DNA of 64,000 nt from Actinomycetota bacterium. GTDB taxonomy: Bacteria; Actinomycetota; Actinomycetes; Nanopelagicales; Nanopelagicaceae. The translations under genes and the position numbers were made by a program. How positions within the stretch are numbered: position 1 is the first letter of the stretch; each line of letters opens with the position of its first letter. This document shows positions 9,553 through 53,588 of the stretch, one piece after another. Under the pieces are notes generated by a model. It saw nothing but the letters and a program-made list of their open reading frames with translations. It was not told the DNA's origin and searched no databases. The DNA lies in contig PLXJ01000039.1 in the NCBI GenBank assembly GCA_003151395.1, positions 56,969 through 120,968 of the forward strand, read 5' to 3'.

Positions 9553-9627
9553 TGGAGCCCCCCGTCAGGATTGAACTGACGACCTTCCGCTTACAAGGCG
9601 GATGCTCTACCACTGAGCTAGGGAGGC
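9553..9627 (-). tRNA. tRNA-Thr (anticodon UGU), CCA encoded
   Basis: The reverse complement folds by hand into a cloverleaf: acceptor GCCTCCC/GGGGGGC, D arm GCTC-AGTGGTA-GAGC, anticodon arm TCCGC-CTTGTAA-GCGGA, variable loop AGGTC, T arm GTCAG-TTCAATC-CTGAC, then T-CCA. Total 75 nt. Confidence 0.9.
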
Positions 9628-29750: not shown

Positions 29751-30652
29751 TACAAACCTTCTAACTCTTGCAAGGTGGGAGGATTTGCGCCGGCGCGTGA
29801 ACAGGTGATTGCAGCAGCCGCTGCTGCTCGCATCAAAACTTTTTCGAGCGTAACTCCTACCAGATTTGGAAGACCGTATTTGACGATACTTTCTACAACA
29901 ATCGCTCCAACCGTATCCCCAGCCCCCACGGTATCAACAACATCTATCTTGACTCCAGGTACTGATACTTCACCATCCTGAGTAAAGCCGTCTATTCCAT
30001 TTGCACCCTTGGTGATCACAACCAACTGCGTTTTTTCGGTAATAAAATTTTCGGCAGCCCTCCTAAAGTCCATCTCCGGATAGAGCCAAGCGAGGTCATC
30101 CTCACTCACCTTTATTACATCGGAAATTGTGGCCCACTTCTGAACGATCCCTTGATATCTCTCTCGATCATTGACGACGGAGCTTCTAATATTAGGGTCA
30201 AAGACAAGTGGGGCTTTAACTTGTTTTGCCCAATTGAATAAGTTTGTTGCACCAGGTTCTACGATGGTTGCCAGAGTGCCAACGTGAAGGACCGCCGGCG
30301 GATTGTGTGGGTTGGGAAGCCACGATTCGGAGAATTCAAATGTTGCTGTTCCATCGATGAGGAATTCATAAGAAGCACCGCCTGTTGCATCAAGAGTAAC
30401 TGTCGCGACGCAGGTCGGGGCGTCTGATGTATGTGTGTAATCAAGTTTCACGCCATAAGCCAATAATTCAGCGCGCGCTTGTTGACCATAATCGTCGGTT
30501 GAAATTCCATCAATAAAATATGAATCAAACCCGAGTCGCGCCAGCGCCCGCGCGGTGTTGGCAGGTCCTCCGCCGACGATCGCTACGCTCTGACCATCTT
30601 TGGGAATTAAATCAATGAGGACTTCTCCGGCAACCCAGATTGGGGTATTCAC
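29750..30652 (-). CDS. PfkB-family carbohydrate kinase (fructokinase-like)
   Basis: GGGPANTARALARLG and DTVGAGDTVGA motifs. GTG start overlaps the upstream stop as GTGA. Confidence 0.8.
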   Translation of the reverse strand: MNTPIWVAGEVLIDLIPKDGQSVAIVGGGPANTARALARLGFDSYFIDGISTDDYGQQARAELLAYGVKLDYTHTSDAPTCVATVTLDATGGASYEFLIDGTATFEFSESWLPNPHNPPAVLHVGTLATIVEPGATNLFNWAKQVKAPLVFDPNIRSSVVNDRERYQGIVQKWATISDVIKVSEDDLAWLYPEMDFRRAAENFITEKTQLVVITKGANGIDGFTQDGEVSVPGVKIDVVDTVGAGDTVGAIVVESIVKYGLPNLVGVTLEKVLMRAAAAAAITCSRAGANPPTLQELEGL

Positions 30653-31140
30653 TCATTCTCTCCGACTCGAGCCAAAAATTCGGTAATCACTCGAATACCA
30701 AATAGGTGGTCCTCAACCTGTGGCAATCCACTAATTAACAAAATCCCTTGTAGCCCTTCTCCAACTACATTGAGCGGCAAACCCCCGCCATGAATTGCAT
30801 GCGTTTCTTCGGGCAATCCATTAGTTTCATACCAATTGATTTCTGCTTCCTCAGCCTTGACGCGCTCCAACATTGTTGAGTGGCCAGTGGCTCTTACAAC
30901 CCGTGCTTTGCGAGCAATCCACGAGGGTTGCTCAGGTTTGGCACCGGGTAGCGCGGTATGAAATACGGTCCACTCGCCAAGACGAACCTCTAGAGATACT
31001 GCAAGTGATTCGCGTCTAGCGATTCCTACTGCAATTTCGCCAATGGTTACAGCGTCTTTGAGATCAAAGTGAGGGAGAACCATAACCCGTTCTTCCAACT
31101 CCAATTGTTCGCTCGTGAACCCTCCAGTTGTCATGTGCAC
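30649..31140 (-). CDS. UPF0303 / heme-degrading (GlcG/HbpS-like) domain protein
   Basis: 163 aa. LELEERVMVLPHFD...WIARKARVVRATGHSTM pattern is typical of UPF0303. Confidence 0.6.
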   Translation of the reverse strand: MHMTTGGFTSEQLELEERVMVLPHFDLKDAVTIGEIAVGIARRESLAVSLEVRLGEWTVFHTALPGAKPEQPSWIARKARVVRATGHSTMLERVKAEEAEINWYETNGLPEETHAIHGGGLPLNVVGEGLQGILLISGLPQVEDHLFGIRVITEFLARVGENE

Positions 31141-32109: not shown

Positions 32110-32757
32110 GTGACTAAGTTCCGTGCCTTAAATATTGCAGTATCTAGCGACGGATTTATGGCTGGTCCACATCAGTCAGAATCTGCCCCGTTTGGTGAAA
32201 ATGGCGAACAACTTCTCTCTTCTTGGGCGTGGGGAACGAAATCAATTCGAGAATGGTCTGGCTTGTCTGGCGGGACGATTGGTATAGATGATGATTTTTT
32301 GAGACGCGGTTTATTTAACCTGGGCGCAAATATCATGGGTCGCAATATGTTTGGACCAATTCGAGGGCCCTGGATGGATAACGAGTGGAAAGGTTGGTGG
32401 GGTCCGAAACCTGGCTACAAAAACCCCGTCTTTGTTTTGACCCATCACCCAAGAGAGTCAGTAGATATGGGAAACGGCACGGTATTTAATTTTGTGACCG
32501 GAGGAATCAAACAGGCTCATGAAATGGCGCTTGAGGTAGCGGAAGGTAAAGACGTTGGAGTAGTTGGAGGAGTTCAAACAATTCAACAATTTCTGGAAGC
32601 CGGGCTCTTAGATGAATTACATATCGCCGAAGTTCCGATCGAATTACATGCTGGTGAATTGCTTTTTTCAAATCCCGAAAGTCAACTAAAGCACTACCAG
32701 CACGTTGACTCTGTTGCTTCAGATGCTGTCATCCATCACACATATTTAAAAAAGTAA
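32110..32757 (+). CDS. Dihydrofolate-reductase-like protein (RibD C-terminal domain family)
   Basis: 215 aa. IAVSSDGFMAG start and the DELHIAEVPIELHAGE C-terminus are typical of RibD_C proteins. GTG start. Confidence 0.65.
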   Translation: MTKFRALNIAVSSDGFMAGPHQSESAPFGENGEQLLSSWAWGTKSIREWSGLSGGTIGIDDDFLRRGLFNLGANIMGRNMFGPIRGPWMDNEWKGWWGPKPGYKNPVFVLTHHPRESVDMGNGTVFNFVTGGIKQAHEMALEVAEGKDVGVVGGVQTIQQFLEAGLLDELHIAEVPIELHAGELLFSNPESQLKHYQHVDSVASDAVIHHTYLKK

Positions 32758-32812: not shown

Positions 32813-33655
32813 TTATTTAGTTGCAGCTGGTGCCGGTGCTGCCCCTGCAGCAGCACCTCCACCAAAACCACCTCCAGGTGTTATTCCCAATTGAGTAAAG
32901 CAGGTCTGCAGCGCAGCTGCTGTTGCGGGATCCTGGAAGTTAGGACGAGCTCCAGCAGCGATAGTTACACCGGCTTTTGTTAAGCAAGCGATCAATTTCG
33001 GATTTGAAAAAGCACCACCGGCACGTCTTACGGTTCCAGTGCTTGCCGCTGCAGTGGGAGCTCCTGCCTTAGAAGCTACCGGGGCAGGAGCAACGGCTGC
33101 GGATCCACCTGTCGCGGCACCACCCGCAGCAGAACCACCTGTCGTAGTTCCACCTGTTGAAGTTCCACCTGTTGAAGTTCCACCAGTCGTAGCAGCGCCG
33201 GTATCAGTGACACGAGCTGCATCACCAGCGACTAGCGAAGATGCTTGCGTTGGATCATCCAAAGTAATTGTGACACTTGAACCTTTTACCGATTTGATAG
33301 TTCCGGTAATGCGGGTTCCGCCACCAAACCCACCAGCACCCGCTCCACCGAACCCTCCAGCAGCCGCTGCCCCGGCGCCAGCCCCTGTCCCGGTTCCAGC
33401 ACCTCCTCCAAATGCAGCTCGGAGCGCGGAAAATCCCGCTGCCCCAGATATTGATGGTATTTTGGTCGCTTCATAATGACCATACCAAGTGCCAACCGAG
33501 AAGAGACCGACAATAACAAAGAGGGCTCCGAGCACCTTCGTGTACTTATTGGTCCATTGGAATGTGCCCTTAGCAAGCTCTTCCTTGAGATTATCTTCAA
33601 CCTCGGTAGCGAAGAGATCAAACTTCGGTGCGTCAGGGGTTAGTTCATCATTCAT
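32813..33655 (-). CDS. Gly/Ala/Thr-rich single-pass membrane protein, last gene of the ABC-transporter string
   Basis: Start set at ATG 33655, which overlaps the permease stop as ATGAATGA. One TM helix (VLGALFVIVGLFSVGTW), GGFGG-type glycine tracts, six GGxxx pentapeptide repeats and a two-Cys C-terminal segment. Confidence 0.6.
   Translation of the reverse strand: MNDELTPDAPKFDLFATEVEDNLKEELAKGTFQWTNKYTKVLGALFVIVGLFSVGTWYGHYEATKIPSISGAAGFSALRAAFGGGAGTGTGAGAGAAAAGGFGGAGAGGFGGGTRITGTIKSVKGSSVTITLDDPTQASSLVAGDAARVTDTGAATTGGTSTGGTSTGGTTTGGSAAGGAATGGSAAVAPAPVASKAGAPTAAASTGTVRRAGGAFSNPKLIACLTKAGVTIAAGARPNFQDPATAAALQTCFTQLGITPGGGFGGGAAAGAAPAPAATK
33095..33184 (-). repeat. Six tandem 15-bp units in the Gly-rich protein gene
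   Basis: Encodes GGTST-GGTST-GGTTT-GGSAA-GGAAT-GGSAA. Two units are identical at the DNA level (CCACCTGTTGAAGTT). Confidence 0.75.
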
Positions 33656-34868
33656 AGCGAAGTGCCTCGATTGGTCGTAGTGATGCGGCGCGTGATGCTG
33701 GGTAGCCGCCGAAGAAAATACCAATCAAGATACTTACTCCGAAGGCCAAGAAGACTGATGCTGGGACAATGACGGGCTTGGTACCAGCGATGGTGAAGTG
33801 ACTACCAACAAATCCAGCTATGACTCCCAAGATGCCTCCCAAAAGCGACAATATCGTCGCTTCAATCAAGAACTGGGTCAAGATCGCAGATTTAGGAGCA
33901 CCGACAGCCTTTCGGATACCGATTTCACGAGTTCGCTCGATGACGGTCACCAACATAATGTTTGTGATGCCAATTCCACCAACGAGAAGCGAGATTGCAG
34001 CAACCATTCCCAACAAAGTAGTAAATGTCTGCGAACTAGAGGAAGCGGTACTCAATAGTGAGGCTTGATTAAATACGCTGAAATCCGCAGTCTTGCGACC
34101 GGAGATTCCATGACGTGCATCCAAGATCGCAGTTAATTCAGTTTGGGCCGCTGTCGTCGTTGTTGATTTTGTGGCTTCTACCAAGATATTTGATAACGGT
34201 TGATTACCTGTAATGGTATTTTCCATCGTCGTAATCGGAATCAAAACTAAACTGTCACCATCTTGAAAACCCGATGATCCTTTGACCGTTGTCAGACCGA
34301 TAACCGTGAACTCAATTCCAGAGCACCGCATCGTCTGCCCAATTGGGCTACTAGTGCCAAAGAGCGCAGTCGCCGTTGTCTGCCCGATCAGTGCAACACG
34401 TCTAGCCTGCGTCACATCGTCGTTGGTGAAATAGGAGCCGGACTGAATCGAGGTGTTGCTCGCTTCATAATACGCAGGCCATGTCCCGTAAAAAGTCGAT
34501 GGCGAAGTTGTATTTGCACCGACAACGCAGGTTCCATTTGTGGATGCGATCGGTGCCACCTGCTTTATATCAGGAGCTTGAGTCTTATCAGTCAACGCCA
34601 CAGTATCCAAAATTGTCAGTGGTTTTATTGTGCTGGCACTTGCCCGAGCGCGGGCTCCAAACCCACCTCCGCCAGAGCGAACCTGCAATGAGTTGGTACC
34701 AAGACGGTCAAGGGAAGCCTGGATCGCCTTGCTCGAACCATTACCAACCGCCAGCAATATTATGACCGAGGCAACACCAATCATGATCCCCAGAGTCGTT
34801 AGCGCAGTACGCAATCGGTTAATAAATAATCCCCGGATCGCGAACTTGATAATTTCAAGGACACTCAT
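33648..34868 (-). CDS. ABC transporter permease, MacB/FtsX family
   Basis: 406 aa. N-terminal TM helix, a large extracytoplasmic domain and a C-terminal FtsX 3-TM bundle (IGIRKAVGA...). Confidence 0.85.
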   Translation of the reverse strand: MSVLEIIKFAIRGLFINRLRTALTTLGIMIGVASVIILLAVGNGSSKAIQASLDRLGTNSLQVRSGGGGFGARARASASTIKPLTILDTVALTDKTQAPDIKQVAPIASTNGTCVVGANTTSPSTFYGTWPAYYEASNTSIQSGSYFTNDDVTQARRVALIGQTTATALFGTSSPIGQTMRCSGIEFTVIGLTTVKGSSGFQDGDSLVLIPITTMENTITGNQPLSNILVEATKSTTTTAAQTELTAILDARHGISGRKTADFSVFNQASLLSTASSSSQTFTTLLGMVAAISLLVGGIGITNIMLVTVIERTREIGIRKAVGAPKSAILTQFLIEATILSLLGGILGVIAGFVGSHFTIAGTKPVIVPASVFLAFGVSILIGIFFGGYPASRAASLRPIEALRYE

Positions 34869-35572
34869 GCGACGCGCTCCCCATTGAGCTCGTCACTCAC
34901 GATTTTGCCATCGCGCATCCGAATGACTCGCTTGGCTCGGTTTGCTACTTCCAGTTCGTGGGTAATAACTACAACCGTGCGCCCAGCTGCATTAATCTGA
35001 TCGAAGAGATCCAACAGATCTGCAGTTGATTTGGAATCAAGTGCGCCAGTTGGTTCATCGGCTAGTAGAAGTGCAGGACGAGTTGCCAGCGCGCGAGCTA
35101 CCGCGACACGTTGTTGCTGCCCACCCGACAACTCCGTTGGTTCATGATTGACACGATCGCTGAGTCCAACGACACCTAGGGCTACCAATGCACGTTCTCG
35201 TCGGACCTTGGATTTAATACCCTGGTACGCCATGGGAAGTTCGACATTATGCAGAGCGGAAGTACGTGGAATTAAATTAAAGGATTGGAAAATAAATCCG
35301 ATCTTTCTACCACGGACGATGGAGAGTTCATTTTCCTCCATGGATGAAATTTCAATTCCATCCAAGAAATACTTTCCACTCGTCATGATGTCAAGGGCAC
35401 CTAGGATGTTCATCAACGTAGATTTTCCAGATCCCGAAGGACCCATGATCGCCACGTATTCTCCCGGAGCGATGGTCAAACTAACTCCATTGAGTGCATA
35501 AATCGTAGAGTCACCTATTCCGTAACGTTTGACGGCGTTTTGGACTTCGATGACTGGTTGAATATCAACCAC
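34865..35572 (-). CDS. ABC transporter ATP-binding protein (MacB-type)
   Basis: Walker [10 protein letters not shown], signature [15 protein letters not shown] and Walker [13 protein letters not shown]. Start set at GTG 35572, which overlaps the adaptor stop by 8 nt; the track ORF runs 120 nt further into the adaptor gene. Confidence 0.9.
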
Positions 35573-37433
35573 CGAATCCACCGCCTCCGCCACGACCGCC
35601 TCCGCCTGTTGCCCCGCCAATGCCTGCCCCGCCAAGAACTGATGGGACACCACCGAGAGAGGAAGAAGTACTAACGACTGCAGGAAGTCCAACTACCTGA
35701 CCAACTTTGAGACCAGACAGGATTTCATCGGATGAGTCACCGACTATTCCCACAAGGACGGAAGTTGGGGTTTCTACTTGTTTGCCATTTACCTTCGTTA
35801 CGACGTTGACGGTAGTGCGAGTACCCCTCGTTGTGACCGCACGTGATGTCACCGAAATCGCATTTGGTGAATCCGCGACAATAACCGTCGCAGTCGTAGT
35901 CATTCCTGGCTTAAGACCGGGGACGACTCCTGCAAGCTGGAAAGTGACGGTGTACGTCGTTGCTCCGCCGGAAACAGTTGGGAGCAGCGCAATTGTCGAA
36001 ACGGTCGCGTTACCTGCAGCATTTGGTAGCGCCGTAAATGCCATTGAAGCGCTCTGGCCGACAGCTATTTTTGCAACATCAGATTCGGAGAATCCGGCAG
36101 TAACTTGAAGTCCCCCAACATCAGTCAGAACGATAAAGCCAGTTGCTCCCGTCGTTCCATTTGTTGGAGTTGTATTTGGACTTATTGAAGAACCAATCAA
36201 TGTGTTAGATATCGATGCAACCTTCCCCGAAACTGGCGCTACCACTGAGGCTCCCTTGAGATTCTTTTGAGCCGTAATGAAATTTGAATCGGCGACTGAC
36301 ACCTGGGCCGCATCCACTGCAATTGTCGTTGAAGTAGTCGAGCTGTTGTTCTGCAATTGATACAGCTTAAGCGAGTACTGCGCCGAAGTAATCGATTGCT
36401 GCGCAGAGGCAAGAGTTTGGGTGTTCTTCTCAATGTTCAGCGCTGCTGTTGTCTTTGCATCGGCGTAACTCTGCTGATAGGTTGCAAGTGATTGTAAATT
36501 CTTCTTAATGTTTAACGCCGCAGTTGCCTGAGCATCGCTATAACTTTGTTGATCGGCCGCAATAGTTTGCGCATCCTTGGCGAGATTTTGTTGCTGCGTT
36601 ATTAAAGCATTGTTATATGCAGTTTGCGCACTCACAACAGCATTATTGTCAGCAACAAGAGTTGTACAGTTTTGATTAATTGTATTAATAGTTGCACAAT
36701 AACTTAAAGTAATTCCATTGGGACCATAAAGTCCCGAATAGTCGTTAAATGTCAATTGCGCATTTGCCAAATTATTCTTCGCGGTGTCTACACTGGATTG
36801 ATAAACAGTAAGATTTTGTGTCGTGGTAGCTTGATCGTTCTTTAACTTTGTTAGGGCTGTCGCAGTCGTTTGACTGTCTGTAGCCTCAGAAGCGCTAATT
36901 AAGGTCTGCTGATAAGCGAGGTTATTCTGCGCTGACGTGACATTTGTACTATCGGTGGCTTGCGACGCAGCAATCAATGTCTGTTGGTAAGCCAGATTGT
37001 TCTCGGCGTTTGTGACTGCCGCCTGGTCGTTCTGAAGTTGTAGCGCCCCTGTCGCAGCAGCAGTGCTCTTGGCGCTCGATAGATTCGCCTGCGCCTGAAC
37101 TAGACTAGCTTTAGCCTGAGCGAGCGAACTTTTGAGACTGTTCGTATCCATCGTGGCGAGAACTTCACCGGCGCGAACTGAATCACCCACCTTGACGTTG
37201 ATCTTAGCCAGCGTTCCTGCTGTGGTGGGTGCGAGTGCGATATCTGTTGGACTGATAACAGTTCCAGAAGAGGATACCGTCGAGGAAACATCGCCGCGGG
37301 CAACGGTTACGGTAGAAAGGGCCACTGGAGCTGCTTTGGGGTGAAGTGAGGAATACCCCCAGAAACCAACCGCCGCAATAGCGACCAAAATTATGAGATT
37401 TATTGAGAGAATACGTAGTCGGGATTTATTCAT
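35565..37433 (-). CDS. HlyD/MacA-type periplasmic adaptor homologue with an unusually long coiled-coil and a Gly-rich C-terminal tail
   Basis: Start set at ATG 37433 (MNKSRLRILSINLIILVAIAAV, membrane anchor). Lipoyl-like motif (VGDSVRAGEVLATMD), about 300 aa of Q/A/N/T-rich coiled coil, beta-barrel and membrane-proximal-like C-terminal half, ending [17 protein letters not shown]. Confidence 0.75.
   Translation of the reverse strand: MNKSRLRILSINLIILVAIAAVGFWGYSSLHPKAAPVALSTVTVARGDVSSTVSSSGTVISPTDIALAPTTAGTLAKINVKVGDSVRAGEVLATMDTNSLKSSLAQAKASLVQAQANLSSAKSTAAATGALQLQNDQAAVTNAENNLAYQQTLIAASQATDSTNVTSAQNNLAYQQTLISASEATDSQTTATALTKLKNDQATTTQNLTVYQSSVDTAKNNLANAQLTFNDYSGLYGPNGITLSYCATINTINQNCTTLVADNNAVVSAQTAYNNALITQQQNLAKDAQTIAADQQSYSDAQATAALNIKKNLQSLATYQQSYADAKTTAALNIEKNTQTLASAQQSITSAQYSLKLYQLQNNSSTTSTTIAVDAAQVSVADSNFITAQKNLKGASVVAPVSGKVASISNTLIGSSISPNTTPTNGTTGATGFIVLTDVGGLQVTAGFSESDVAKIAVGQSASMAFTALPNAAGNATVSTIALLPTVSGGATTYTVTFQLAGVVPGLKPGMTTTATVIVADSPNAISVTSRAVTTRGTRTTVNVVTKVNGKQVETPTSVLVGIVGDSSDEILSGLKVGQVVGLPAVVSTSSSLGGVPSVLGGAGIGGATGGGGRGGGGGFGG
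36402..36551 (-). repeat. Internal 75-nt (25-aa) duplication in the adaptor coiled-coil, pair B
   Basis: QQSYSDAQATAALNIKKNLQSLATY and QQSYADAKTTAALNIEKNTQTLASA are adjacent. Confidence 0.75.
36873..37004 (-). repeat. Internal 75-nt (25-aa) duplication in the adaptor coiled-coil, pair A
   Basis: ENNLAYQQTLIAASQATDS and QNNLAYQQTLISASEATDS lie 25 residues apart. Confidence 0.75.
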
Positions 37434-37495
37434 AAGAGCACCGTAGATAACGTTTTTGTGATTAAACCGCCATATTCCTGTTAATTGACTGTGAG

Positions 37496-38266
37496 TTAAA
37501 CGGGTAGTTCCCCAATTGTCCAAGCAGTCTCCTCATGGCGATCAATAACCCAAACTTTGTACTCCGCGAGTTCTGGCTTGGAAAAGATGACAGCACCATC
37601 GCGACCCATAACTACCAGGGCAGTTGCAAGAGCATCGGCGAGCCCGCCATCTGGACCAATCACGGTCGCGCTTAAAGCCCCGATGGCGATTAAGCCGGTA
37701 TAGGGATCTTTAATATGCGCGCCGATTTCGTAAGTTCCGGAGGTTGCAATCGCTCCCTCGAAAATCTCAAAAACCTTGACCACCTCAAATCGATTTTCAG
37801 GACTGCGAATCCCAATCGACCAAGGTTTACCGGCCTCAAAACCTCCGGCTAGAGAGAGATCTCCCGCGGCGTTAACTTGAACATTTTCAGCCCCATGTCG
37901 CTGCAAGATTCGGATACATCGATCTGCCGCCCAGCCTTTTACATACCCAGATGGGTCATAACCCCCTTTGACACACCATGGATCAAAGGAGCCATCGGTT
38001 AGCCCTTTGGCAACTTCACATAACTGCCAGACTTCTTGCATCTGCGCCGAGGCCTCTTGGATCTTTAGTTCACCACGGCGAATCTTTGAAACCTGGGAGT
38101 CGGGTTTATATGTCGAAAACTCCTGGTCAATGACTTTTACGTATTCGGTGACTTCTGCCAGCCCAGCCTCGAGTTCCTCCAATCCAACTTTCGTTGATGC
38201 GACATCGATAAAAAGGATGGTTCCCCAGACATCAATTTCGGCAGTAGTCCGAGCGCGTTCTGACAA
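37496..38266 (-). CDS. apbE: FAD:protein FMN transferase (ApbE family), no signal peptide
   Basis: GAIATSGTYEIG and IKDPYTGL blocks are typical of ApbE. 256 aa. The only possible start is the TTG immediately after the upstream TAA. Confidence 0.8.
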   Translation of the reverse strand: MSERARTTAEIDVWGTILFIDVASTKVGLEELEAGLAEVTEYVKVIDQEFSTYKPDSQVSKIRRGELKIQEASAQMQEVWQLCEVAKGLTDGSFDPWCVKGGYDPSGYVKGWAADRCIRILQRHGAENVQVNAAGDLSLAGGFEAGKPWSIGIRSPENRFEVVKVFEIFEGAIATSGTYEIGAHIKDPYTGLIAIGALSATVIGPDGGLADALATALVVMGRDGAVIFSKPELAEYKVWVIDRHEETAWTIGELPV

Positions 38267-38920
38267 TTACAAGCCAGCTTTTGTTAGCGCTGACTGCAAG
38301 GAAGTAGCCCATCCTTGCGAGGTATATGAGGCTCCACCAACTCCTTGAATGTTTGCAGATTGCGCGGCTAGTGTCTCCTGAATCAAGTATGGGATTGCCT
38401 GTTGATTGATTTGCTGGTCACGAAAAGAACCCGTTGGATATGTGAGCGCAATGGCATTTGTAATCTTGTTGTTAACAACAACGATTTGAACTTGTACTGG
38501 ACCGAAGCGAGTATTACCGGCATCGCCCGTAAATGTTCCACTGACCCCGGCTGCCTTAGGAGTTGGGGTTGGAGTTGGGGTTGAAGGAGTAGGAGTAGAT
38601 GGAGTCGTTGTTTTCGTTGTACTCGGAGTCTTCTTTGTTGTTGGTTTCTTCGTCCCTTTTTTAGTGGTCGACGGAGTTGGAGTGTTGGTTTTTGGGGTGG
38701 AGGTCGCTGTTGGGGTTGGCGTTGCGCTTGCTGAGGGAGTCGGAGTTGTTCCACCAGATAGCGAAGTCCCACCAGAAAGCGAAGTCCCACCAGAAAGTGA
38801 AGTCCCAGTGCCCAACGTCAAACCAGTCGTTGCTCCAAATTGTGGCGGAGTAATAGATAAGACTGCACCAAGTCCACCAATGGTTCCACCAGCAATCAAA
38901 AAGAAGCGTTTACCGATCAT
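38267..38920 (-). CDS. Exported FMN-binding-domain protein with a Thr/Pro-rich linker
   Basis: N-terminal anchor or signal MIGKRFFLIAGGTIGGLGAVL, (GGTSLS)x3 repeat, TP-rich linker, C-terminal FMN_bind-like domain with GVGGASYTS (compare the SGAT flavinylation motif). Good SD (GGGAGA) upstream. Confidence 0.7.
   Translation of the reverse strand: MIGKRFFLIAGGTIGGLGAVLSITPPQFGATTGLTLGTGTSLSGGTSLSGGTSLSGGTTPTPSASATPTPTATSTPKTNTPTPSTTKKGTKKPTTKKTPSTTKTTTPSTPTPSTPTPTPTPKAAGVSGTFTGDAGNTRFGPVQVQIVVVNNKITNAIALTYPTGSFRDQQINQQAIPYLIQETLAAQSANIQGVGGASYTSQGWATSLQSALTKAGL
38751..38804 (-). repeat. Three tandem 18-bp units in the FMN-binding protein gene
   Basis: CCACCAGA(T/A)AG(C/T)GAAGTC x3, encoding (GGTSLS)x3. 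Confidence 0.85.
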
Positions 38921-38931
38921 TATTTTCTCCC

Positions 38932-40290
38932 TTACTCAACCGAGTGAAATTCGAATTCTTCATTGTGAAAACGGTCGTGAGGAATTCCAACATCACGCGC
39001 CGCTTTTCTAACGGTTTCTACCAGTCCAGTAGGGCCACAGATGTAAACATCAGACTCACTAAAGGCCGGAACAAACTTCTTAATGTAGCGAGCATCCATT
39101 GGATGCTGCTTTCGGTTGCCCACCAAATAATGAACTCGAGCCCCCCGCCAATCAGCGATTGCATCTAACTCTTTACGAAATACAAGTTCCTTCTCACTGC
39201 CTACGCGATAGAGAACGTCAATTTCTTTAGTAGCATCAAACTCTTCAAGGAGCGCTCGCAGTGGTGTTATACCAACCCCGCCGCCGACCAAAACGATGTG
39301 ACCCCGTGCCGCCTTAGAGGCGACGAAGGTTCCATAAGGTCCTTCGAAGAAGACTCGAGTTCCGGGTTTGATGTTTAAGACGGCACCCGATGCATCGCCC
39401 AAATCCTTAATTGTTACCCGCATAAAATGTTCGGTTGGGGCTGCAGATAAGGAGTAGGGGTGGGAGATCCACCATTGGCCGGAGGTAATAAATCGCCAAC
39501 TAAAAAATTGACCACCTTGTGCATGTAGGCGGTCGAGGTGACGCCCCCGCATCACAACTGAAACCACGCCAGGTCCCTCAACCACGACTTGGTCTACTCG
39601 CAAATTGTGACGCAGTGAGCGCGCAACCGGTATTACAAACCGCCAAAGCAGGATTACTGCTGCTGAAGCGATATACAAACCTTCCCAGTAAATTTTGTTT
39701 AAAGGGTGTCCGGCAAACATCGGGCCGGTTAATACTTGGTGCATAAAGCCCAAAGCGATAGCTAAGTACGTGTATAAGTGAATTGTCCACCAAGTCTCGT
39801 AACTCATCTTTGCTCGAGCCTTTTTATAGGATGACACACCAGCAGCCATCATCAAACCAAAACCGATATCGGCGGGGATCATCCACGGATACTTAAGCGT
39901 CATACGCCAAAGTTCTGAAAGGGTAGAGATCCGATCTCCACCGGCGTAGCCGAGTCCGACTAGAAGTACATGCAATAAAATTAGATACAAGGACCAGGGA
40001 CCTAATTTTCGGTGCCATTTAACTAACTTGTCGTGACCGACGGATTTTTCAATCCACGGAATACGCGCAACGAAAACTAACCCGACAAGAGCGAAATAGG
40101 AGCCCGCTAACGCGACCAATCGTGAAATAGATGTTATTGACGGATAAACCCCGACCCAATCTCCAGAAGTCATGCTGTCTAGTTCAAGTGCTAGCGTCAG
40201 TCCTAGACCGACTCCGAGCGCAATTGAGGCCCAGTCCGCATTAATACGATGCCCGACGGCTAGATCACGCTTACTCCGCTTAACTGCCAT
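38932..40290 (-). CDS. NOX/ferric-reductase-like transmembrane di-heme flavoenzyme (FRD TM domain plus FAD- and NAD(P)H-binding domains)
   Basis: TM His pairs H-x13-H (HRKLGPWSLYLILLH) and H-x12-H (HLYTYLAIALGFMH), FAD motif HPYSL, NAD(P)H motif GGGVGITP, and a C-terminal CGP block. Confidence 0.85.
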   Translation of the reverse strand: MAVKRSKRDLAVGHRINADWASIALGVGLGLTLALELDSMTSGDWVGVYPSITSISRLVALAGSYFALVGLVFVARIPWIEKSVGHDKLVKWHRKLGPWSLYLILLHVLLVGLGYAGGDRISTLSELWRMTLKYPWMIPADIGFGLMMAAGVSSYKKARAKMSYETWWTIHLYTYLAIALGFMHQVLTGPMFAGHPLNKIYWEGLYIASAAVILLWRFVIPVARSLRHNLRVDQVVVEGPGVVSVVMRGRHLDRLHAQGGQFFSWRFITSGQWWISHPYSLSAAPTEHFMRVTIKDLGDASGAVLNIKPGTRVFFEGPYGTFVASKAARGHIVLVGGGVGITPLRALLEEFDATKEIDVLYRVGSEKELVFRKELDAIADWRGARVHYLVGNRKQHPMDARYIKKFVPAFSESDVYICGPTGLVETVRKAARDVGIPHDRFHNEEFEFHSVE

Positions 40291-40361
40291 GCCCCAATGT
40301 AACCCGAAAGTTATGAGGGATTCCTGTGAGATTTCAGAGATTTAGGTTAATTGTTTAAGCG

Positions 40362-40409
40362 CTTGAAAAGCCAGAAACCCGGCTCTCCTAGTGGAGAACC
40401 GGGTTTCTG
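40362..40409 (-). terminator. Intrinsic terminator of surface-protein paralog 1
   Basis: 17-bp stem (one mismatch) CAGAAACCCGGCTCTCC / GGAGAACCGGGTTTCTG with a 4-nt loop, followed on the minus strand by GCUUUUC. Lies 34 nt after the stop. Confidence 0.75.
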
Positions 40410-40442: not shown

Positions 40443-42245
40443 TTATGCCTTTACCTTCTTGATGATCCGAACTAGGAGTGCTGAAATTGCAGCAACCTTT
40501 GCAAGGACTGTTGTAACTTGCTGTGACAATGCTGTTACAGCTGCAAGAGCAGCATCAGCCTTGTCGCCTGCATCTTGAGCAGCCTGTGTTGCAGCATCAG
40601 CTGAATCAGCAGCTGCGTTAGCAGCGTCTGTTGCAGCGTTAGCAGCATCTGTTGCCTCGTTAGCAGCATCTACAGCAGCGTTAGCTGCGGTATCAGATGA
40701 ACCGAGAACAGTGAAGTCTGCTTCGTTAGTTGCAGTTGCAGTTGCGCTTGAGAGGAATCCAGCAATAACTGTTCCGCCAGCGATTACTACGTTAGCGGTA
40801 GCAAGTGGAGCGTAAACAGTTGAAGTGTTAACTCCACCAGCGAAGGTTGTTGAAACTAGACCTGGGAGTGCTCCTTGAAGTCCAACGTTTGAAGTTGGAG
40901 CTGCTGAGAAGAATCCAGTGTAAGTTCCATCTGCAATTGGATTTCCCTTTGCAGAGGCAGCTGTCAATGTGTAAACAACCTTGGTGCCTGGGTCATATGT
41001 AGCAGCATCGGTTGATGCAACTACTGATGCTGCAACAGCTGGAACTACCCAAACAGTTGCTGTAGCAGTAACGAGACCTGTAGCAGTATCAGAGAAGGTA
41101 ATTACTGTAGAACCTTCTGAGACTGGGAGAATGTTTACATATGAGTAACCATTTGTTGCGTCGTAGGTAACTGCACCAACGGTTGCAACAGCAGTGGTTC
41201 CAGATGTAACAGTGATACCAGCTGCGCTTGGGATTGTGTTTCCATTTGAATCCGTTGCCTTGACTGATACTGGTGCTCCACCGGTAGCAAAGACAGAACC
41301 GTTAATACCTTCGGTAGCTGTTGAAGCGAAACCAGCAACAGGTGCGACTGGCACATTTGTGTGCACAGTAGCTACAAGCTTTGCAACTGTGGTGCTGTAG
41401 AAGATAACGCTGAATGTTCCAAGAACAACACCAGCAGTTGAGTCAGAGACTGTAACTGTTGAAGTTCCAGCAGTTCCATCGCCGAGCAGAAGTACAGTGG
41501 CAGTTGAGCCAACACCCTGTGCATTGCTTACAGAACGTCCACCTGCTGCAGCATTTGCGTTGGCGTAGGTAGAACCGACCTTTAGAATTCCAGGACCGCT
41601 AACGGACGCTGAAATTGTATCGGTGGTGATTGCAGCTGGAGTTGAGGCGTTATTGTTCACGAGAACATATGCGCCGCCAGCGAGCAAACCATTGGTGCTT
41701 ACTGAAGTGAGTCCAGTATCTTCAGTTGCAACTGTTACCTTTTGTACGCCTGCGATATCTGCTGCAGTGTTTGAGGCAACGATCGAGTTTGCAACAGACA
41801 AGACTGGAGCAGCGCCCCATGTGACTGTCAAAGTGATAGCGGCATTGTTGCTACCTGTAAGAGTAACAACCTGTGTACCAGCAGTTGCTGAGTAAACAGA
41901 CACTGTCATGGATTCTGTTCCAGCGAAGTTAGCGGTACCAATGGCACCAGTACCAGCTGACCAGATCTCAGAAGCACCAGCAGCAGACAAACTTGTAGTT
42001 GCTGGAGCAGATGGGTAGTTAACAGATCCACCAGTTGAAGAAATTGTGTAGTACTTGTCAGCAGAACCCGCAACGATTATTTCCGCCGTGTAGGTACCTG
42101 TGATAGCGGCAGCGGTCGAACTTGCTCCGCTACCAGCGAGTGTTGGTGTTGCGGCAGCATTTGCTGATACGGCAGAAATTCCGCCGATCGCCAACGCAGC
42201 AGCTGCAACAAGCGCGACGCGCTTAAAAGCTGTCTTTGTAGACAT
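40443..42245 (-). CDS. Secreted Ala/Thr/Ser/Gly/Val-rich protein with Ig-like (Big_1/Big_2-like) segments and a C-terminal heptad coiled-coil: paralog 1
   Basis: Start set at ATG 42245 with SD AAAGGAAA (the track ORF adds 61 aa with no coding character). Signal peptide MSTKTAFKRVALVAAAALAIGGISAVSANA. No Cys. Big_2-like ITVTSGTTAVATVG...STVITFSD...ATATVWV and Big_1-like ASTDAATYDPGTKVVYTLTAASAKGNPIADG. Ends in DAANxAT heptads and LLVRIIKKVKA. Confidence 0.75.
   Translation of the reverse strand: MSTKTAFKRVALVAAAALAIGGISAVSANAAATPTLAGSGASSTAAAITGTYTAEIIVAGSADKYYTISSTGGSVNYPSAPATTSLSAAGASEIWSAGTGAIGTANFAGTESMTVSVYSATAGTQVVTLTGSNNAAITLTVTWGAAPVLSVANSIVASNTAADIAGVQKVTVATEDTGLTSVSTNGLLAGGAYVLVNNNASTPAAITTDTISASVSGPGILKVGSTYANANAAAGGRSVSNAQGVGSTATVLLLGDGTAGTSTVTVSDSTAGVVLGTFSVIFYSTTVAKLVATVHTNVPVAPVAGFASTATEGINGSVFATGGAPVSVKATDSNGNTIPSAAGITVTSGTTAVATVGAVTYDATNGYSYVNILPVSEGSTVITFSDTATGLVTATATVWVVPAVAASVVASTDAATYDPGTKVVYTLTAASAKGNPIADGTYTGFFSAAPTSNVGLQGALPGLVSTTFAGGVNTSTVYAPLATANVVIAGGTVIAGFLSSATATATNEADFTVLGSSDTAANAAVDAANEATDAANAATDAANAAADSADAATQAAQDAGDKADAALAAVTALSQQVTTVLAKVAAISALLVRIIKKVKA
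40594..40698 (-). repeat. About five tandem 21-bp units encoding Ala-rich heptads in paralog 1
   Basis: GCGTTAGCAGCGTCTGTTGCA / GCGTTAGCAGCATCTGTTGCC / TCGTTAGCAGCATCTACAGCA and flanking degenerate units. Together they encode DAANEAT-DAANAAT-DAANAAA-DSADAAT. Confidence 0.8.
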
Positions 42246-42344
42246 TATTTTCCTTTCAGAAAAAGTCGATTGGGAGCATTTCTCCCGCTCGGCTTGGCCA
42301 ACAAATAACAATTCGTTATAAGCGAACTGACCTTTGTTAACCAC

Positions 42345-42373
42345 GAGATGAGACGCACGTGCTGACTCATCTC
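42345..42373 (-). promoter_or_regulatory. Conserved leader stem-loop or palindrome 100-128 nt upstream of paralog 1
   Basis: GAGATGAG-(13 nt containing GCACGTGC)-CTCATCTC. The same element sits at the identical distance upstream of paralog 2, with compensatory substitutions. Confidence 0.55.
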
Positions 42374-42424
42374 TATTCCCTCGCAATATCCGGACTGCGC
42401 GGGAAACTTGTTGTGCGAAGGAAA

Positions 42425-43834
42425 TCATTTTGTGACTCCGTTCGCGGCGACCTTGATCGCTTCGGCAAGAATTTGAGTCTTACCAGGATTGAGCACTAGT
42501 CGGACAGAAATAGAAGTCGGTATCGAAGTAACATCGACACCCTGACTTACAGGTAAAAGTATACCTGCGTCTACTGGGGAAACAGTGACAATTGTGCTGG
42601 AGACGAGATAGTTACCGTCAGGTAACCGTGAGATATCTGTACTGATAGCAGAAGAATTGAGTGCGACCCAACCGCCGTGCATAGAGACAGATGTTGTTGG
42701 TGTGTATGTAGTCCCAGAACCATCAACGTTAATGACCTGATTAATAAGTACATTGACCGCTTTTGGATCGTAAGACATGACAGGCGCAGTCAATGTGATG
42801 CCGTTATCGGTGATCACAGGAGCAGGCTTGCCAATGATAATTGTGCCGGTATCACCAGTCAGATCTGTGACAGTAAAACCGGTAGGGATTCCGCCAGTGT
42901 CGAGTCCACTAAATTGCAGACCGGCAATCTTTGCATCGACAGTTGGAGTCAAGGTATCGAGCTTCGATAGCGTCGAACTTTTGGTTGGGGACGTTGACGG
43001 AGTTGCTGATGCCGAAGCAGAGGCAGAGGCAGATGGAGTTGAAGAAGGTGTTGGTGGCGTGACGACTGTTGTCAAAGCTGTTGGTGAAGTCAGTGGGACG
43101 CTCTTGTGGTTAAAGGAATTGAATCCGATAAATGCGGCAAAAAGAAGAACCAGTGACAAGGCGACCTTGGATGATTTCTTTGCAAGTTCTGCTGCCTTCT
43201 TGTAGGAAGATGACAAGGCGTCTAATGCAGTAGCACCAGTCTGCTCGTCGATAATCCACTCGGAGAGAACGCGGACAAAAGAGGCGCGAGAACGAGCCAC
43301 AACGTGGCGGACGTTTGCGGGAGTTGTTCCAATGGCAGTGGCGATCTCTTCGGTCGTGCGGCCTTCCATTTCCCACATGACAAGCGCGGTGCGCTGATCT
43401 GCAGAGAGACGAGAAAGGGCTTCGCGAATGATCGAGGCATCTTCGGCGGCAGCCAAGGTGGAATCAAAAGGAATATGAGCATCAAAGGCCAACTCATCCA
43501 AGCGCTCTTGGGTGGCGTCGGAGTCAATTGCGACCAGGTTGGGGCGAGAACCGGTGGCGCGAATCTGATTGAGGCAGAGGTTGTTCACGGTGGTACGCAG
43601 GTAAGCAAGCGCCCGATCACGGGTATCTAGTTCTGGGGCAGCCAAAATGAACTTGAGGAAGGCTTCTTGCACGATTTCGACCGCATCAGCCTCGGAACGG
43701 AGAATTCGACGGGCTTGGGAGGTCAAAGAGGAGCGTTGTTCTGAATAGAGCGCGGAGAGGTCGGCAATTGACCAGTCGGATACGGCTTGAAGAGGCGCCG
43801 CTTCCGTGATCTTCGCTAGCTTGCGAAATGCCAT
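42425..43834 (-). CDS. ECF-type sigma-70 factor fused to a TM helix and a roughly 190-aa extracytoplasmic domain
   Basis: Sigma region 2 (EIVQEAFLKFI...YLRTTVNNLCLNQIR) and region 4 (LSADQRTALVMWEMEGRTTEEIATAIGTTPANVRHVVARSR), then TM VALSLVLLFAAFIGFNSF, an S/T/P/A linker (SASASASA) and a beta-rich C-terminal domain. SD GGAG lies 10 nt upstream. Confidence 0.8.
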   Translation of the reverse strand: MAFRKLAKITEAAPLQAVSDWSIADLSALYSEQRSSLTSQARRILRSEADAVEIVQEAFLKFILAAPELDTRDRALAYLRTTVNNLCLNQIRATGSRPNLVAIDSDATQERLDELAFDAHIPFDSTLAAAEDASIIREALSRLSADQRTALVMWEMEGRTTEEIATAIGTTPANVRHVVARSRASFVRVLSEWIIDEQTGATALDALSSSYKKAAELAKKSSKVALSLVLLFAAFIGFNSFNHKSVPLTSPTALTTVVTPPTPSSTPSASASASASATPSTSPTKSSTLSKLDTLTPTVDAKIAGLQFSGLDTGGIPTGFTVTDLTGDTGTIIIGKPAPVITDNGITLTAPVMSYDPKAVNVLINQVINVDGSGTTYTPTTSVSMHGGWVALNSSAISTDISRLPDGNYLVSSTIVTVSPVDAGILLPVSQGVDVTSIPTSISVRLVLNPGKTQILAEAIKVAANGVTK

Positions 43835-43989: not shown

Positions 43990-44037
43990 CAAAAAAGTCA
44001 GAAACCCGGCTCCCTTTATTGGGAACCGGGTTTCTGA
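43990..44037 (-). terminator. Intrinsic terminator of surface-protein paralog 2
   Basis: Stem TCAGAAACCCGGCTCCC / GGGAACCGGGTTTCTGA with a 6-nt loop, followed on the minus strand by CUUUUUUG. The stem sequence is nearly identical to the terminator at 40372..40409. Confidence 0.8.
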
Positions 44038-44077: not shown

Positions 44078-45883
44078 TTAAGCCTTCAACTTCTTGATGA
44101 GTCGAGCCACAAGTGCAATAAGGGCGACCTGTTTTGCCAGGACGGCGGTTACACGTGCGTTCAAAACCACCATGGCAGCTACTGCTGCCGCTGCTTGTGC
44201 TCCAGCGGCTTTTGCAGCCGTGGTGGCGGCATCAGCGTTGGAAGCAGCCAAAGTAGCAGCAACTGTTGCTGCCTTAGCAGCGGTTGTTGCTTCATTAGCA
44301 GCGTCAATTGCACCTTGAACAGAACCTGTTGAGCCAGAGACCGCGAAGAGTGCACTGTTGGTAGTTATACCTGCAGCTGCCGGCGCAACGAAAGCAAGTG
44401 AAGAAAGCGTTCCACCTGCGATCACGACATTTGCTGCAGATGCTGGGGAATAAACGACCACGCTAGATACTCCACCAACGAATGTAATTGCACCCGTAGT
44501 AGGAAGTGCTCCTTGGAGTCCGATATTTGAAGTCGGAGCAGTAGAGAACAATCCAGTGTAAGTACCATCGGCCACTTGACGTCCGGCTGCATCAGTTGCA
44601 GTCAAGGTGTACACAACCTTGGTACCAGGAGCATAGGTTGCTGCATCGGTAGAAGCTACAACTTTTGCAACAACTGGTGAAACCACCAAAACGGTTGTTG
44701 TAGCTACAACTTTGCCTGTAGCGGTATCAGAGAAGGTAAGTATTGTTGAACCTTCTGCAACCGGGATGATGTTTACAAATGATGAAGCGTTTGCTGGGTC
44801 ATAAGTAATCGCACCAACATTTGCTACGGAAGTTGTTCCCGAAGTAACTGTAATACCGGTTGAAGCAGGAATTGCATTTCCGTTTACATCTTTAGCGACT
44901 ACAGAGACTGCCGCCATGCCAGCTACAACTACAGTTGAATTGATTCCCTCAGTCGCCTTTGGAACAAATCCTGCAGGCATAGTGAGTGGGACGTTCGTAT
45001 TAGTTGTTGCAACGAGTGAAGCGACGACTGTGCTATGGAAGATAACTGAGAAGGTGCCAAGCACAATTCCAGCAGTTGAGTCAGAAACCGTCACTGTTGA
45101 AGTTCCAGAAGTTCCGTCTCCGAATATCAAAACATAGGCTGTTGAACCAGCAGCTACGTTACTAACAGCACGACCACCAGCTGCAGCTGCTGCTGCGGCA
45201 TAAGTTGCACCGATTTGGAGAATTCCAGGTCCGGTAACGGATGCTGAAATTACGTCGGTCGTAATTGCAACAGGAGTCGAAGCGTTATTGTTCAAAAGAA
45301 CGTATGCGCCGCCACCAAGGGTGTTCACAGTGTAAATCGCAGAAAGACCAGTGTCTTCGGTTGCGACTGTTGTCTTAGGTGTTCCACCAGAGATATCTGC
45401 AGCAGTGTTTGATGCGACCACTGAATTTGCTGCAGAAGCTACTGCTGGAGCGCCCCATGTAATAGTCAAAGTAATTGCAGTTGAACTGCTACCAGCGAGG
45501 GTCACAACTTGAGTTCCAGCAGTTGCTGAGTAGACAGAAACAGTCATGGTCTCTGATCCAGCAAAGTTAGTGGTACCAATTGCACCGGTGCCTGCTGACC
45601 AAATTTCGGCAGCGCCACTGGTAGAAAGTGTGGTTGTTGCTGGGGCAGTTGGATAGTTAACAACGCCACCAGTTGAAGAAATGGTGTAGTACTTATCAGC
45701 GCTGCCTGCAGCGATGACCTCTGTCGTGTAATTTCCAGTGATGAGGCTCGCCGTTGAACTAGTTGCGCTGCCAGCAAGAGTTGGAGCTGTTAAGGCATTG
45801 GCTGAAACGGCAGAAATTCCGCCGATCGCTACTGCAGCGGCCGCAATAAGTGCGACTCGCTTGAATACTGTTTTTGTAGACAT
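44078..45883 (-). CDS. Secreted Ala/Thr/Ser/Gly/Val-rich protein with Ig-like segments and a C-terminal heptad coiled-coil: paralog 2
   Basis: 601 aa, collinear with paralog 1 and highly similar in the N-terminal third. Signal peptide MSTKTVFKRVALIAAAAVAIGGISAVSANA. C-terminus ...LIALVARLIKKLKA. SD AAAGGAAAG. Confidence 0.8.
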   Translation of the reverse strand: MSTKTVFKRVALIAAAAVAIGGISAVSANALTAPTLAGSATSSTASLITGNYTTEVIAAGSADKYYTISSTGGVVNYPTAPATTTLSTSGAAEIWSAGTGAIGTTNFAGSETMTVSVYSATAGTQVVTLAGSSSTAITLTITWGAPAVASAANSVVASNTAADISGGTPKTTVATEDTGLSAIYTVNTLGGGAYVLLNNNASTPVAITTDVISASVTGPGILQIGATYAAAAAAAGGRAVSNVAAGSTAYVLIFGDGTSGTSTVTVSDSTAGIVLGTFSVIFHSTVVASLVATTNTNVPLTMPAGFVPKATEGINSTVVVAGMAAVSVVAKDVNGNAIPASTGITVTSGTTSVANVGAITYDPANASSFVNIIPVAEGSTILTFSDTATGKVVATTTVLVVSPVVAKVVASTDAATYAPGTKVVYTLTATDAAGRQVADGTYTGLFSTAPTSNIGLQGALPTTGAITFVGGVSSVVVYSPASAANVVIAGGTLSSLAFVAPAAAGITTNSALFAVSGSTGSVQGAIDAANEATTAAKAATVAATLAASNADAATTAAKAAGAQAAAAVAAMVVLNARVTAVLAKQVALIALVARLIKKLKA

Positions 45884-50140: not shown

Positions 50141-50202
50141 CGGCCACTCCATCAATCGGGTAAGCCCTTATCTTACGGGCAAATTTGAGATACCGTTTTT
50201 CC

Positions 50203-53548: not shown

Positions 53549-53588
53549 TGGGAGAGGATAGCGTCAAATATCTAGCCTCAATACGTGA

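Follow-up and report, generated by a model that had tools for sequence, protein, structure and literature searches.

The window, a stretch of 64,000 nt from contig PLXJ01000039.1 of the Actinomycetota assembly GCA_003151395.1, carries at positions 37496-40290 a module of three co-directional, tightly packed open reading frames (ORFs) on the minus strand, as read from the ORF list. In order of transcription these encode a flavocytochrome related to the NADPH oxidases and ferric reductases (NOX/FRE), a protein with a flavin mononucleotide (FMN)-binding FMN_bind domain, and an ApbE flavin transferase (Table 1), with 11 nt between the first two genes and 0 nt between the last two. A genome scan placed the window in freshwater acI/Nanopelagicales Actinobacteria, the closest related locus being 95% identical. 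The trio is the acI/Nanopelagicales member of the class that Méheust et al. (eLife 2021) defined as the 'MsrQ-like system', with 1,797 clusters in 1,468 genomes (PMC8238504). The operational definition of that class, a PF01794 gene clustered with a gene for an FMN-binding domain and/or with apbE (PMC8238504), covers the three genes described here. MsrQ-like systems are broadly conserved in Actinobacteria, typically with both apbE and an FMN-binding gene, and were proposed to pass electrons from cytosolic NAD(P)H through hemes to an extracytosolic FMN (PMC8238504); our interpretation of the trio restates this published bioinformatic prediction, and a later study by Huang et al. (mSystems 2024) added AlphaFold models only (PMC11334425).

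Of 80 related acI loci, 65 hold the complete trio with gene order and orientation unchanged. Thirteen of the other 15 loci lie on cut contigs, and the remaining two (L051 and L068) have enough sequence but no ApbE gene, at least one of them being a second copy in a genome that also holds the full trio. Seven distant leaderless ApbEs (~40% identity) were all encoded directly 3′ of Ferric_reduct and FMN_bind genes, and the gene order is strictly kept from acI to Acidimicrobiales. The initial annotation would have given up its reading had the three genes been confined to this genome; with the trio in 65/80 related and 7/7 distant loci, they clearly are not.

Variants of the arrangement were also observed. 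Locus L068 and locus L039 come from one metagenome-assembled genome, and some acI genomes hold a second pair of NOX-like and FMN_bind genes without an adjacent ApbE gene. L068 additionally encodes a protein of 435 aa whose N-terminal domain is FMN_bind-like (motif VSGASEIS) and whose long tail is of low complexity. In five loci (L014, L026, L030, L038 and L041) a gene or gene pair is inserted between the FMN_bind and ApbE genes and splits the coupled pair; as read by eye, the insert is toxin-antitoxin-like, with HepT/DUF86-like and nucleotidyltransferase-like genes.

Components of the module

The first gene had been annotated as carrying the full NOX/FRE signature, and every motif named at that time was found, with Pfam and the fold of the bacterial homologue SpNOX, from Streptococcus pneumoniae, in agreement. 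The protein contains a Ferric_reduct domain (PF01794, residues 66-181, E=4e-15), followed by FAD_binding_8 (PF08022, 238-321) and NAD_binding_1 (PF00175, 334-429) domains. Potential heme ligands are spaced as H93-x13-H107 in the third transmembrane helix and H171-x12-H184 in the fifth, and the cofactor motifs HPYS(L), GGGVGITP and CGP are located at residues 277, 336 and 418, respectively. These motif residues are invariant in 36 homologues (59-92% identity), and seven distant homologues, all from high-GC Actinobacteria and one labelled Acidimicrobiales by its source, share the patterns HPYS, CGP and G-V-G-x-T-P as well as the two His spacings. The closest solved relative by sequence is SpNOX (8QT6, E=3e-11, ~16% identity), and NCBIfam gave a weak match of the transmembrane domain to MsrQ.

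The AlphaFold2 (AF2) model of the flavocytochrome, with a predicted local distance difference test (pLDDT) score of only 75 and a predicted template modelling (pTM) score of 0.67, shows six long helices within residues 16-228 with short connecting helices, followed by a domain like that of ferredoxin-NADP reductase (FNR). The best Foldseek matches of this model were SpNOX structures (8QT6, 8QTA and 8QQ7), with template modelling scores of 0.61-0.64 relative to the query (TMq) and 0.67-0.71 relative to the target (TMt) and E-values down to 2e-14; DUOX1, NOX5 and NOX2 were further full-length matches from the NOX family, and the SpNOX dehydrogenase domain aligned with a TMt of 0.72-0.80. The protein is predicted to contain six transmembrane helices with two bis-His b-heme sites, an inner one formed by H93/H171 and an outer one formed by H107/H184. 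Basic residues are found at the N-terminus and in the loops at 76-95 and 153-161, so that, by the positive-inside rule, the dehydrogenase domain would be cytoplasmic and His107/His184 would lie close to the outer face.

The protein encoded by the second gene consists of an N-terminal hydrophobic anchor (residues 6-24), a linker of ~95 aa and a C-terminal FMN_bind domain of ~90 aa. Full-length, it scored 20.8 bits with the Pfam FMN_bind model (PF04205), below the cut-off of 22, and the domain alone scored 24.4 bits; 26 of 28 homologous domains matched the model at E<=0.01, and a profile of the domain matched PDB entry 8P2A, the second domain of SaFMN3 from Streptomyces azureus, with E=5e-28. 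The sequence GVGGASYTS at residues 193-201, which had been noted for its likeness to the ApbE acceptor site, aligns with VSGATYTS in 8P2A in such a way that Ser198 is opposite the flavinylated Thr, which supports that suggestion and makes Ser198 the predicted flavinylation site. Relative to the [S/T]GA[S/T] flavinylation motif, the window has G-G-A-S198, with Gly in the first position. Variants in relatives include GVSGASYTS, GASGASYTS, GATGASYTS and GVGGATYTS, and the motif [G/S/T]GA[S/T][Y/F]TS is kept in 62 of 71 relatives. According to a review of ApbE flavinylation, Thr and Ser are both accepted as the FMN acceptor residue. SaFMN3 was shown by experiment to carry covalent FMN when co-expressed with ApbE, and it consumes O2 in its reduced form (PMC10339131).

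At its N-terminus the FMN_bind protein has a short [KR]R followed by a Gly-rich hydrophobic segment (MIGKRFFLIAGGTIGGLGAVLSITPPQ; Kyte-Doolittle (KD) score 1.79), which is consistent with a signal anchor. Lys4 and Arg5 precede the anchor and no charged residue follows it for ~40 residues, which predicts an N-in, C-out orientation. The linker is rich in Thr, Pro, Ser, Gly and Lys, and ranges from 35 to 176 aa in relatives; Thr/Pro-rich linkers are typical of extracytoplasmic actinobacterial proteins. The initial annotation had described the protein as exported, with a C-terminal FMN_bind-like domain; the domain was found as described, but the protein looks tethered to the membrane via a conserved and apparently uncleaved anchor. 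The dipeptide in front of the anchor is KR in 63 of 71 acI proteins, RR in three (with anchors of the type TRRFFLIAGG/SRRFFLIAGG) and neither in a few, and two of the seven distant loci (L082 and L087) have RR as well. The resemblance of the anchor to an uncleaved twin-arginine translocation (Tat) signal with a Gly-rich h-region is suggestive at best, and the prevalent KR also fits the Sec pathway.

The assignment of the third gene to ApbE was borne out by Pfam (PF02424, E=8e-38), by sequence matches to solved ApbE/Ftp proteins in the PDB and by its predicted ApbE T-fold. The AF2 model (pLDDT 90.9), in which the first strand begins at residue 5, matched Treponema pallidum Ftp and Vibrio cholerae ApbE (4IFU, 4XDR and 6NXI) with a TMq of 0.82-0.88 in Foldseek; the TMt was only ~0.68, since this compact form is ~60-70 residues shorter than the solved enzymes. 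The HMMER alignment to 6NXI equates Ser176, His184 and Asp211 with V. cholerae Ser241, His257 and Asp285, and this intact catalytic triad is invariant in 35 sequences (37-92% identity).

The ApbE protein has no signal peptide or lipobox, which are typical of the family though not universal in it. Its ORF cannot extend further 5′, since the TTG start is the codon immediately following the TAA of the FMN_bind gene. This start is supported by an ATG at the same codon in seven relatives (L005, L008, L009, L013, L022, L054 and L057), and no upstream extension or leader was found in any of the 64 acI loci with an examinable start. Short hydrophilic N-termini were likewise seen in the seven distant loci and in ~60 representatives of a broad subfamily, which comprises 188 clusters (at the 50% identity level) with E<1e-30.

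Two other explanations for the short ApbE and its abutting start were considered and rejected. Stop-codon readthrough, giving an FMN_bind-ApbE fusion, would need the two genes in one frame, and only 23 of 60 junctions are in frame, about the one-third expected by chance; the other junctions overlap by 1-7 nt in other frames, and the homologue match tables held no fused protein with both PF04205 and PF02424. The junction is thus an ordinary case of translational coupling. A truncated pseudogene is at odds with the conservation of the 250-260 aa form in more than 100 clusters (76-93% identity), with the triad intact and a confident fold.

Proposed electron path, acceptor and place of flavinylation

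From the domain identities, motifs, folds, conservation and gene order set out above, we infer cofactor occupancy, topology, electron direction, acceptor identity and the place of flavinylation as follows. We hold it moderately probable that the trio forms a complete module for outward electron transfer, belongs to the 'MsrQ-like / bacterial NOX-like' type of flavinylation system and acts by the path already proposed for that class. Cytoplasmic NAD(P)H would reduce flavin adenine dinucleotide (FAD) in the C-terminal FNR-like domain of the flavocytochrome, from which electrons would traverse the membrane via stacked b hemes, passing from the inner (His93/His171) to the outer one (His107/His184), and on to FMN held by a phosphoester on Ser198 of the FMN_bind domain. 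This domain would be kept at the outer membrane face by the conserved anchor and the flexible tether of Thr, Pro and Lys residues, whose length may let the single flavin domain commute between membrane and outer wall, where it would reduce a soluble or wall-distal acceptor. The favoured acceptor would be organically complexed Fe(III), for assimilation, with the formation of superoxide/H2O2 from O2 as an unavoidable side reaction. The initial annotation had likewise suggested that electrons pass from NAD(P)H through two hemes to an extracellular flavoprotein, and each feature of that path which can be looked for in sequence was present.

The case for Fe(III) is circumstantial and draws on the ferric-reductase ancestry of the transmembrane domain, on the iron-assimilation role proposed for a subset of MsrQ-like systems linked to the ferrous-iron transporter VIT1 (PMC8238504), and on Bifidobacterium breve, in which apbE and the FMN-binding SifE are required for growth under iron limitation (PMC5449479). 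Several observations weigh against the proposed path or its iron branch. Clustering of the neighbours in the 80 loci revealed no conserved acceptor or transporter gene near the module, and no iron transporter, VIT1 gene or IdeR/Fur/Zur box was found near it in the window or its relatives. SpNOX reduces O2 but is a poor ferric reductase in vitro (PMC11564096). The leaderless ApbE conflicts with the canonical extracytosolic flavinylation, which makes either the timing or the topology unusual. Finally, our literature search found no biochemical work on the MsrQ-like system, in line with the initial annotation, which knew of none for this combination; the combination itself was not new, as the trio and the same proposed mechanism had already been published.

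Reduction of O2 is a serious rival to that of Fe(III), and would at the least be a side reaction. Taken furthest, the module would be a true NADPH oxidase, that is a dedicated generator of extracellular superoxide/H2O2 in which either the outer heme or the reduced FMN passes electrons to O2 as the acceptor, and the reactive oxygen species could serve in oxidising dissolved organic matter, in metal cycling or in competition. We consider such a dedicated function unlikely, though it has several points in its favour: acI is an aerobic planktonic freshwater lineage, the solved structures nearest to the flavocytochrome are NOX enzymes, and both SpNOX and reduced SaFMN3 react with O2. Against this, NOX enzymes reduce O2 without needing the flavoprotein and ApbE that are co-conserved here. 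The canonical O2-reduction centre of NOX enzymes consists of two His, an Arg and an outer-heme propionate (PMC11564096), and the flavocytochrome has no His one helical turn (+4) past the outer ligand H107 (HVLLVG), with an invariant H195 in the loop between the fifth and sixth transmembrane helices; this point, read from the sequence, is weak. The canonical centre is absent from SpNOX, in which the outer heme is solvent-exposed, acceptors are promiscuous and cytochrome c is reduced directly, and the authors of that cryo-EM study suggested that SpNOX may have a protein as acceptor, O2 perhaps not being the physiological one (PMC11564096).

Such a protein acceptor also underlies a further alternative, in which the FMN_bind protein is a protein-to-protein shuttle and the module feeds an extracytoplasmic enzyme encoded elsewhere, for instance a methionine-sulfoxide reductase like MsrP, a repair system of the envelope (for thiols or otherwise) or a reductase that depends on flavin. 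The homology of the transmembrane domain to MsrQ (the weak NCBIfam match; PMC8238504) and the supply of fumarate and urocanate reductases by flavinylated FMN_bind proteins in Listeria and relatives point in this direction, but no candidate partner is kept within 8 kb in the 80 acI and seven distant loci, and we regard this arrangement as improbable. It is very improbable that the FMN_bind domain is a cytoplasmic substrate of a cytoplasmic ApbE, with the heme domain connected with the quinone pool or some other membrane function instead of an outward path, since, even though ApbE is leaderless in every relative examined and cytoplasmic ApbE/target pairs are known (PMC12052999), this would bypass the two hemes and so make them pointless, and it disagrees with the charge distribution around the anchor, with the Thr/Pro-rich linker and with the predicted anchoring of the homologue SaFMN3 outside the cell (PMC10339131).

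Where the FMN would be attached is a separate question. Canonical ApbE acts outside the cytoplasmic membrane and needs exported FAD, a picture that is not established for this module because its ApbE lacks an export signal; there are also ApbEs that are cytoplasmic together with their targets, for example that of the cytoplasmic fumarate reductase of Klebsiella (PMC12052999). The options are cytoplasmic flavinylation, after which the modified and possibly folded domain would be exported, export of ApbE without a leader, or a topology other than that predicted. Owing to the missing export signal, ApbE would most likely install FMN from FAD while the FMN_bind domain is still in the cytoplasm, ahead of its export. 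Extended to a full scheme, in which the leaderless ApbE uses cytoplasmic FAD, the modified FMN_bind protein is then exported and anchored via its [K/R]R-x-hydrophobic Gly-rich segment, and the tethered single-flavin shuttle reduces Fe(III)-organics or O2 outside, this remains a tentative and rather doubtful proposal. Rieske proteins, which have an uncleaved Tat signal anchor, offer a model for the export of such a pre-flavinylated protein. We found no paper addressing a leaderless ApbE in this module in our literature search.

Transcription signals and gene neighbourhood

Upstream of the module, a hairpin resembling an intrinsic terminator terminates the preceding surface-protein gene and, as judged from the sequence, is the predicted 5′ boundary of the transcription unit of the module. 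It is kept in four loci of close relatives (L003, L004, L008 and L010), and a near-identical hairpin is located 3′ of the paralogous surface-protein gene. A −10-like hexamer immediately precedes the NOX-like gene, with a TANNNT hexamer at the same site in L003-L006, L008 and L010, and there is no Shine-Dalgarno sequence, which suggests that the mRNA of this gene may be leaderless or near-leaderless. A Shine-Dalgarno-like GGGAG is present upstream of the FMN_bind gene. Rfam revealed no riboswitch or other known RNA upstream of the module, its sole match being a distant tRNA, and a search of 69 regions upstream of the NOX-like gene for IdeR, Fur, Zur and SoxR boxes gave best matches of 10-13 of 15-19 positions, which is the background level.

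Table 1. Features of the three-gene module and its surroundings in the window.
Feature	Coordinates	Strand	Length	Remarks
NOX/FRE-type flavocytochrome gene	40290..38932	-	452 aa	
FMN_bind protein gene	38920..38267	-	217 aa	
ApbE gene	38266..37496	-	256 aa	
Promoter −10-like hexamer TACATT	40296..40301	-		5 nt from ATG of NOX-like gene
Intrinsic-terminator-like hairpin	40365..40409	-		17-bp stem, 4-nt loop, GCTTTTC tail; read from sequence
Near-identical hairpin	44037..43998			3′ of paralogous surface-protein gene
HlyD-family adaptor	37523..35565	-		Very long coiled coil, Gly-rich tail
ATP-binding cassette (ABC) ATPase	35692..34865	-		
MacB_PCD/FtsX permease	34868..33648	-		
Gly-rich membrane protein	33724..32813	-		No Pfam match
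Ala/Thr-rich secreted protein	42428..40443	-	661 aa	
Ala/Thr-rich secreted protein	45883..44078	-	601 aa	
Extracytoplasmic function (ECF) sigma factor	43834..42425	-		
HbpS-like protein	30649-31140	-		PF03928, E=3e-20
RibD_C-domain protein	32110-32757	+		E=3e-8
Alpha-glucan metabolism cluster	51416-57178			
ADP-glucose-pyrophosphorylase-like and glycosyltransferase genes	48995-51423			
tRNA	9556..9627	-		Single

The genes flanking the trio in related loci have sugar, cell-envelope and housekeeping functions and offer no clue to its role. In the window, a MacAB-like block (32813-37523, minus strand) lies directly 3′ of the ApbE gene. It was considered as a part of the module and rejected: such an exporter is 3′ of ApbE in 22 of the 65 loci, the window included, and absent elsewhere, and is therefore an optional insertion. 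The block recalls the sifABCDE iron-uptake cluster of B. breve, which has FtsX permeases, an ATPase and the FMN-binding SifE.

On the other side of the module, the window encodes two paralogous Ala/Thr-rich secreted proteins that are 67% identical, lack Pfam or NCBIfam matches and have a hydrophobic, basic C-terminal tail, each gene being followed by one of the near-identical hairpins with a 17-bp stem. Between them lies the gene for an ECF sigma factor whose C-terminal extension, ~280 aa long, contains a transmembrane segment and a Pro/Thr/Ser-rich region, and many relatives have the pair of ECF and surface-protein genes upstream of their trio. Downstream of the trio region, a gene for an HbpS-like protein of the 'haem-degrading' family, without a signal peptide, is kept in 35 related loci beside a PfkB kinase and an aldose epimerase; this linkage probably reflects synteny only. 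A RibD_C-domain protein, either of riboflavin biosynthesis or dihydrofolate-reductase-like, is also encoded near the module, at a position that is not kept in relatives. Further away, the window holds an alpha-glucan metabolism cluster that encodes a GlgE-like maltosyltransferase and two enzymes of the CBM48/alpha-amylase family, genes for an ADP-glucose-pyrophosphorylase-like protein and a glycosyltransferase, and a single tRNA.

Relation to known systems and implications

The trio shares its three components, phylum bias and proposed path with the MsrQ-like systems described previously, without any architectural difference; the missing export signal of the ApbE in these clusters was not discussed in either paper (PMC8238504, PMC11334425). 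Like SpNOX, the flavocytochrome is a single-chain bacterial protein, predicted to combine six transmembrane helices and two bis-His b-heme sites with an FAD/NAD(P)H domain of the FNR type, but SpNOX was studied alone, with no mention of an FMN_bind or ApbE partner (PMC11564096), whereas here a flavoprotein is encoded beside the flavocytochrome. Escherichia coli MsrQ, with its partners Fre and MsrP, and the eukaryotic FRE/FRO proteins have the ferric-reductase-domain transmembrane core with H-x13-H/H-x12-H ligands in common with our protein. MsrQ lacks a fused dehydrogenase domain and passes its electrons to MsrP, whereas in FRE/FRO the FAD/NAD(P)H domain is fused as in our protein and electrons flow outward to Fe(III), as they would here, but FRE/FRO need no flavoprotein as partner and pass electrons to Fe(III) straight from the outer heme.

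The FMN_bind protein belongs to the same subfamily as SaFMN3 (Tong et al., BBA Adv 2023; PMC10339131) and shares with it an N-terminal anchor and a flanking flavin-transferase gene, but has one FMN domain on a long tether instead of three in tandem, with Ser in place of Thr as the predicted acceptor residue and Gly in place of the first Ser/Thr of the motif. Flavin-based extracellular electron transfer (EET) in Listeria monocytogenes (Ndh2/EetA/EetB/DMK/PplA/FmnB) similarly relies on a transferase of the ApbE type (FmnB), and its final extracytosolic carrier is a flavinylated FMN_bind protein tethered at the surface (PplA). There the membrane is crossed by a dedicated NADH dehydrogenase and demethylmenaquinone (DMK), whereas here a di-heme NOX-like protein would serve, and the Listeria FmnB is extracytosolic and fed with FAD by an energy-coupling factor (ECF) exporter, whereas the ApbE of the present cluster is leaderless and no such exporter is encoded with it.

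The acI/Nanopelagicales are among the most abundant bacteria of lakes, and a conserved NAD(P)H-driven outward path in this lineage could bear on the acquisition of iron from humic complexes and on extracellular superoxide in fresh water. The trio belongs to a class of ~1,800 published clusters that have so far been described from genomes, and its FMN_bind protein is a natural candidate for the 'missing protein acceptor' that has been discussed for SpNOX and other NOX homologues of bacteria. The leaderless ApbE bears on where and when extracytosolic flavoproteins are flavinylated in Actinobacteria. If flavinylation does precede export, the module would provide the first case in which ApbE flavinylates an extracytosolic electron carrier before that carrier leaves the cytoplasm, and an FAD exporter, which Listeria requires, would not be needed.

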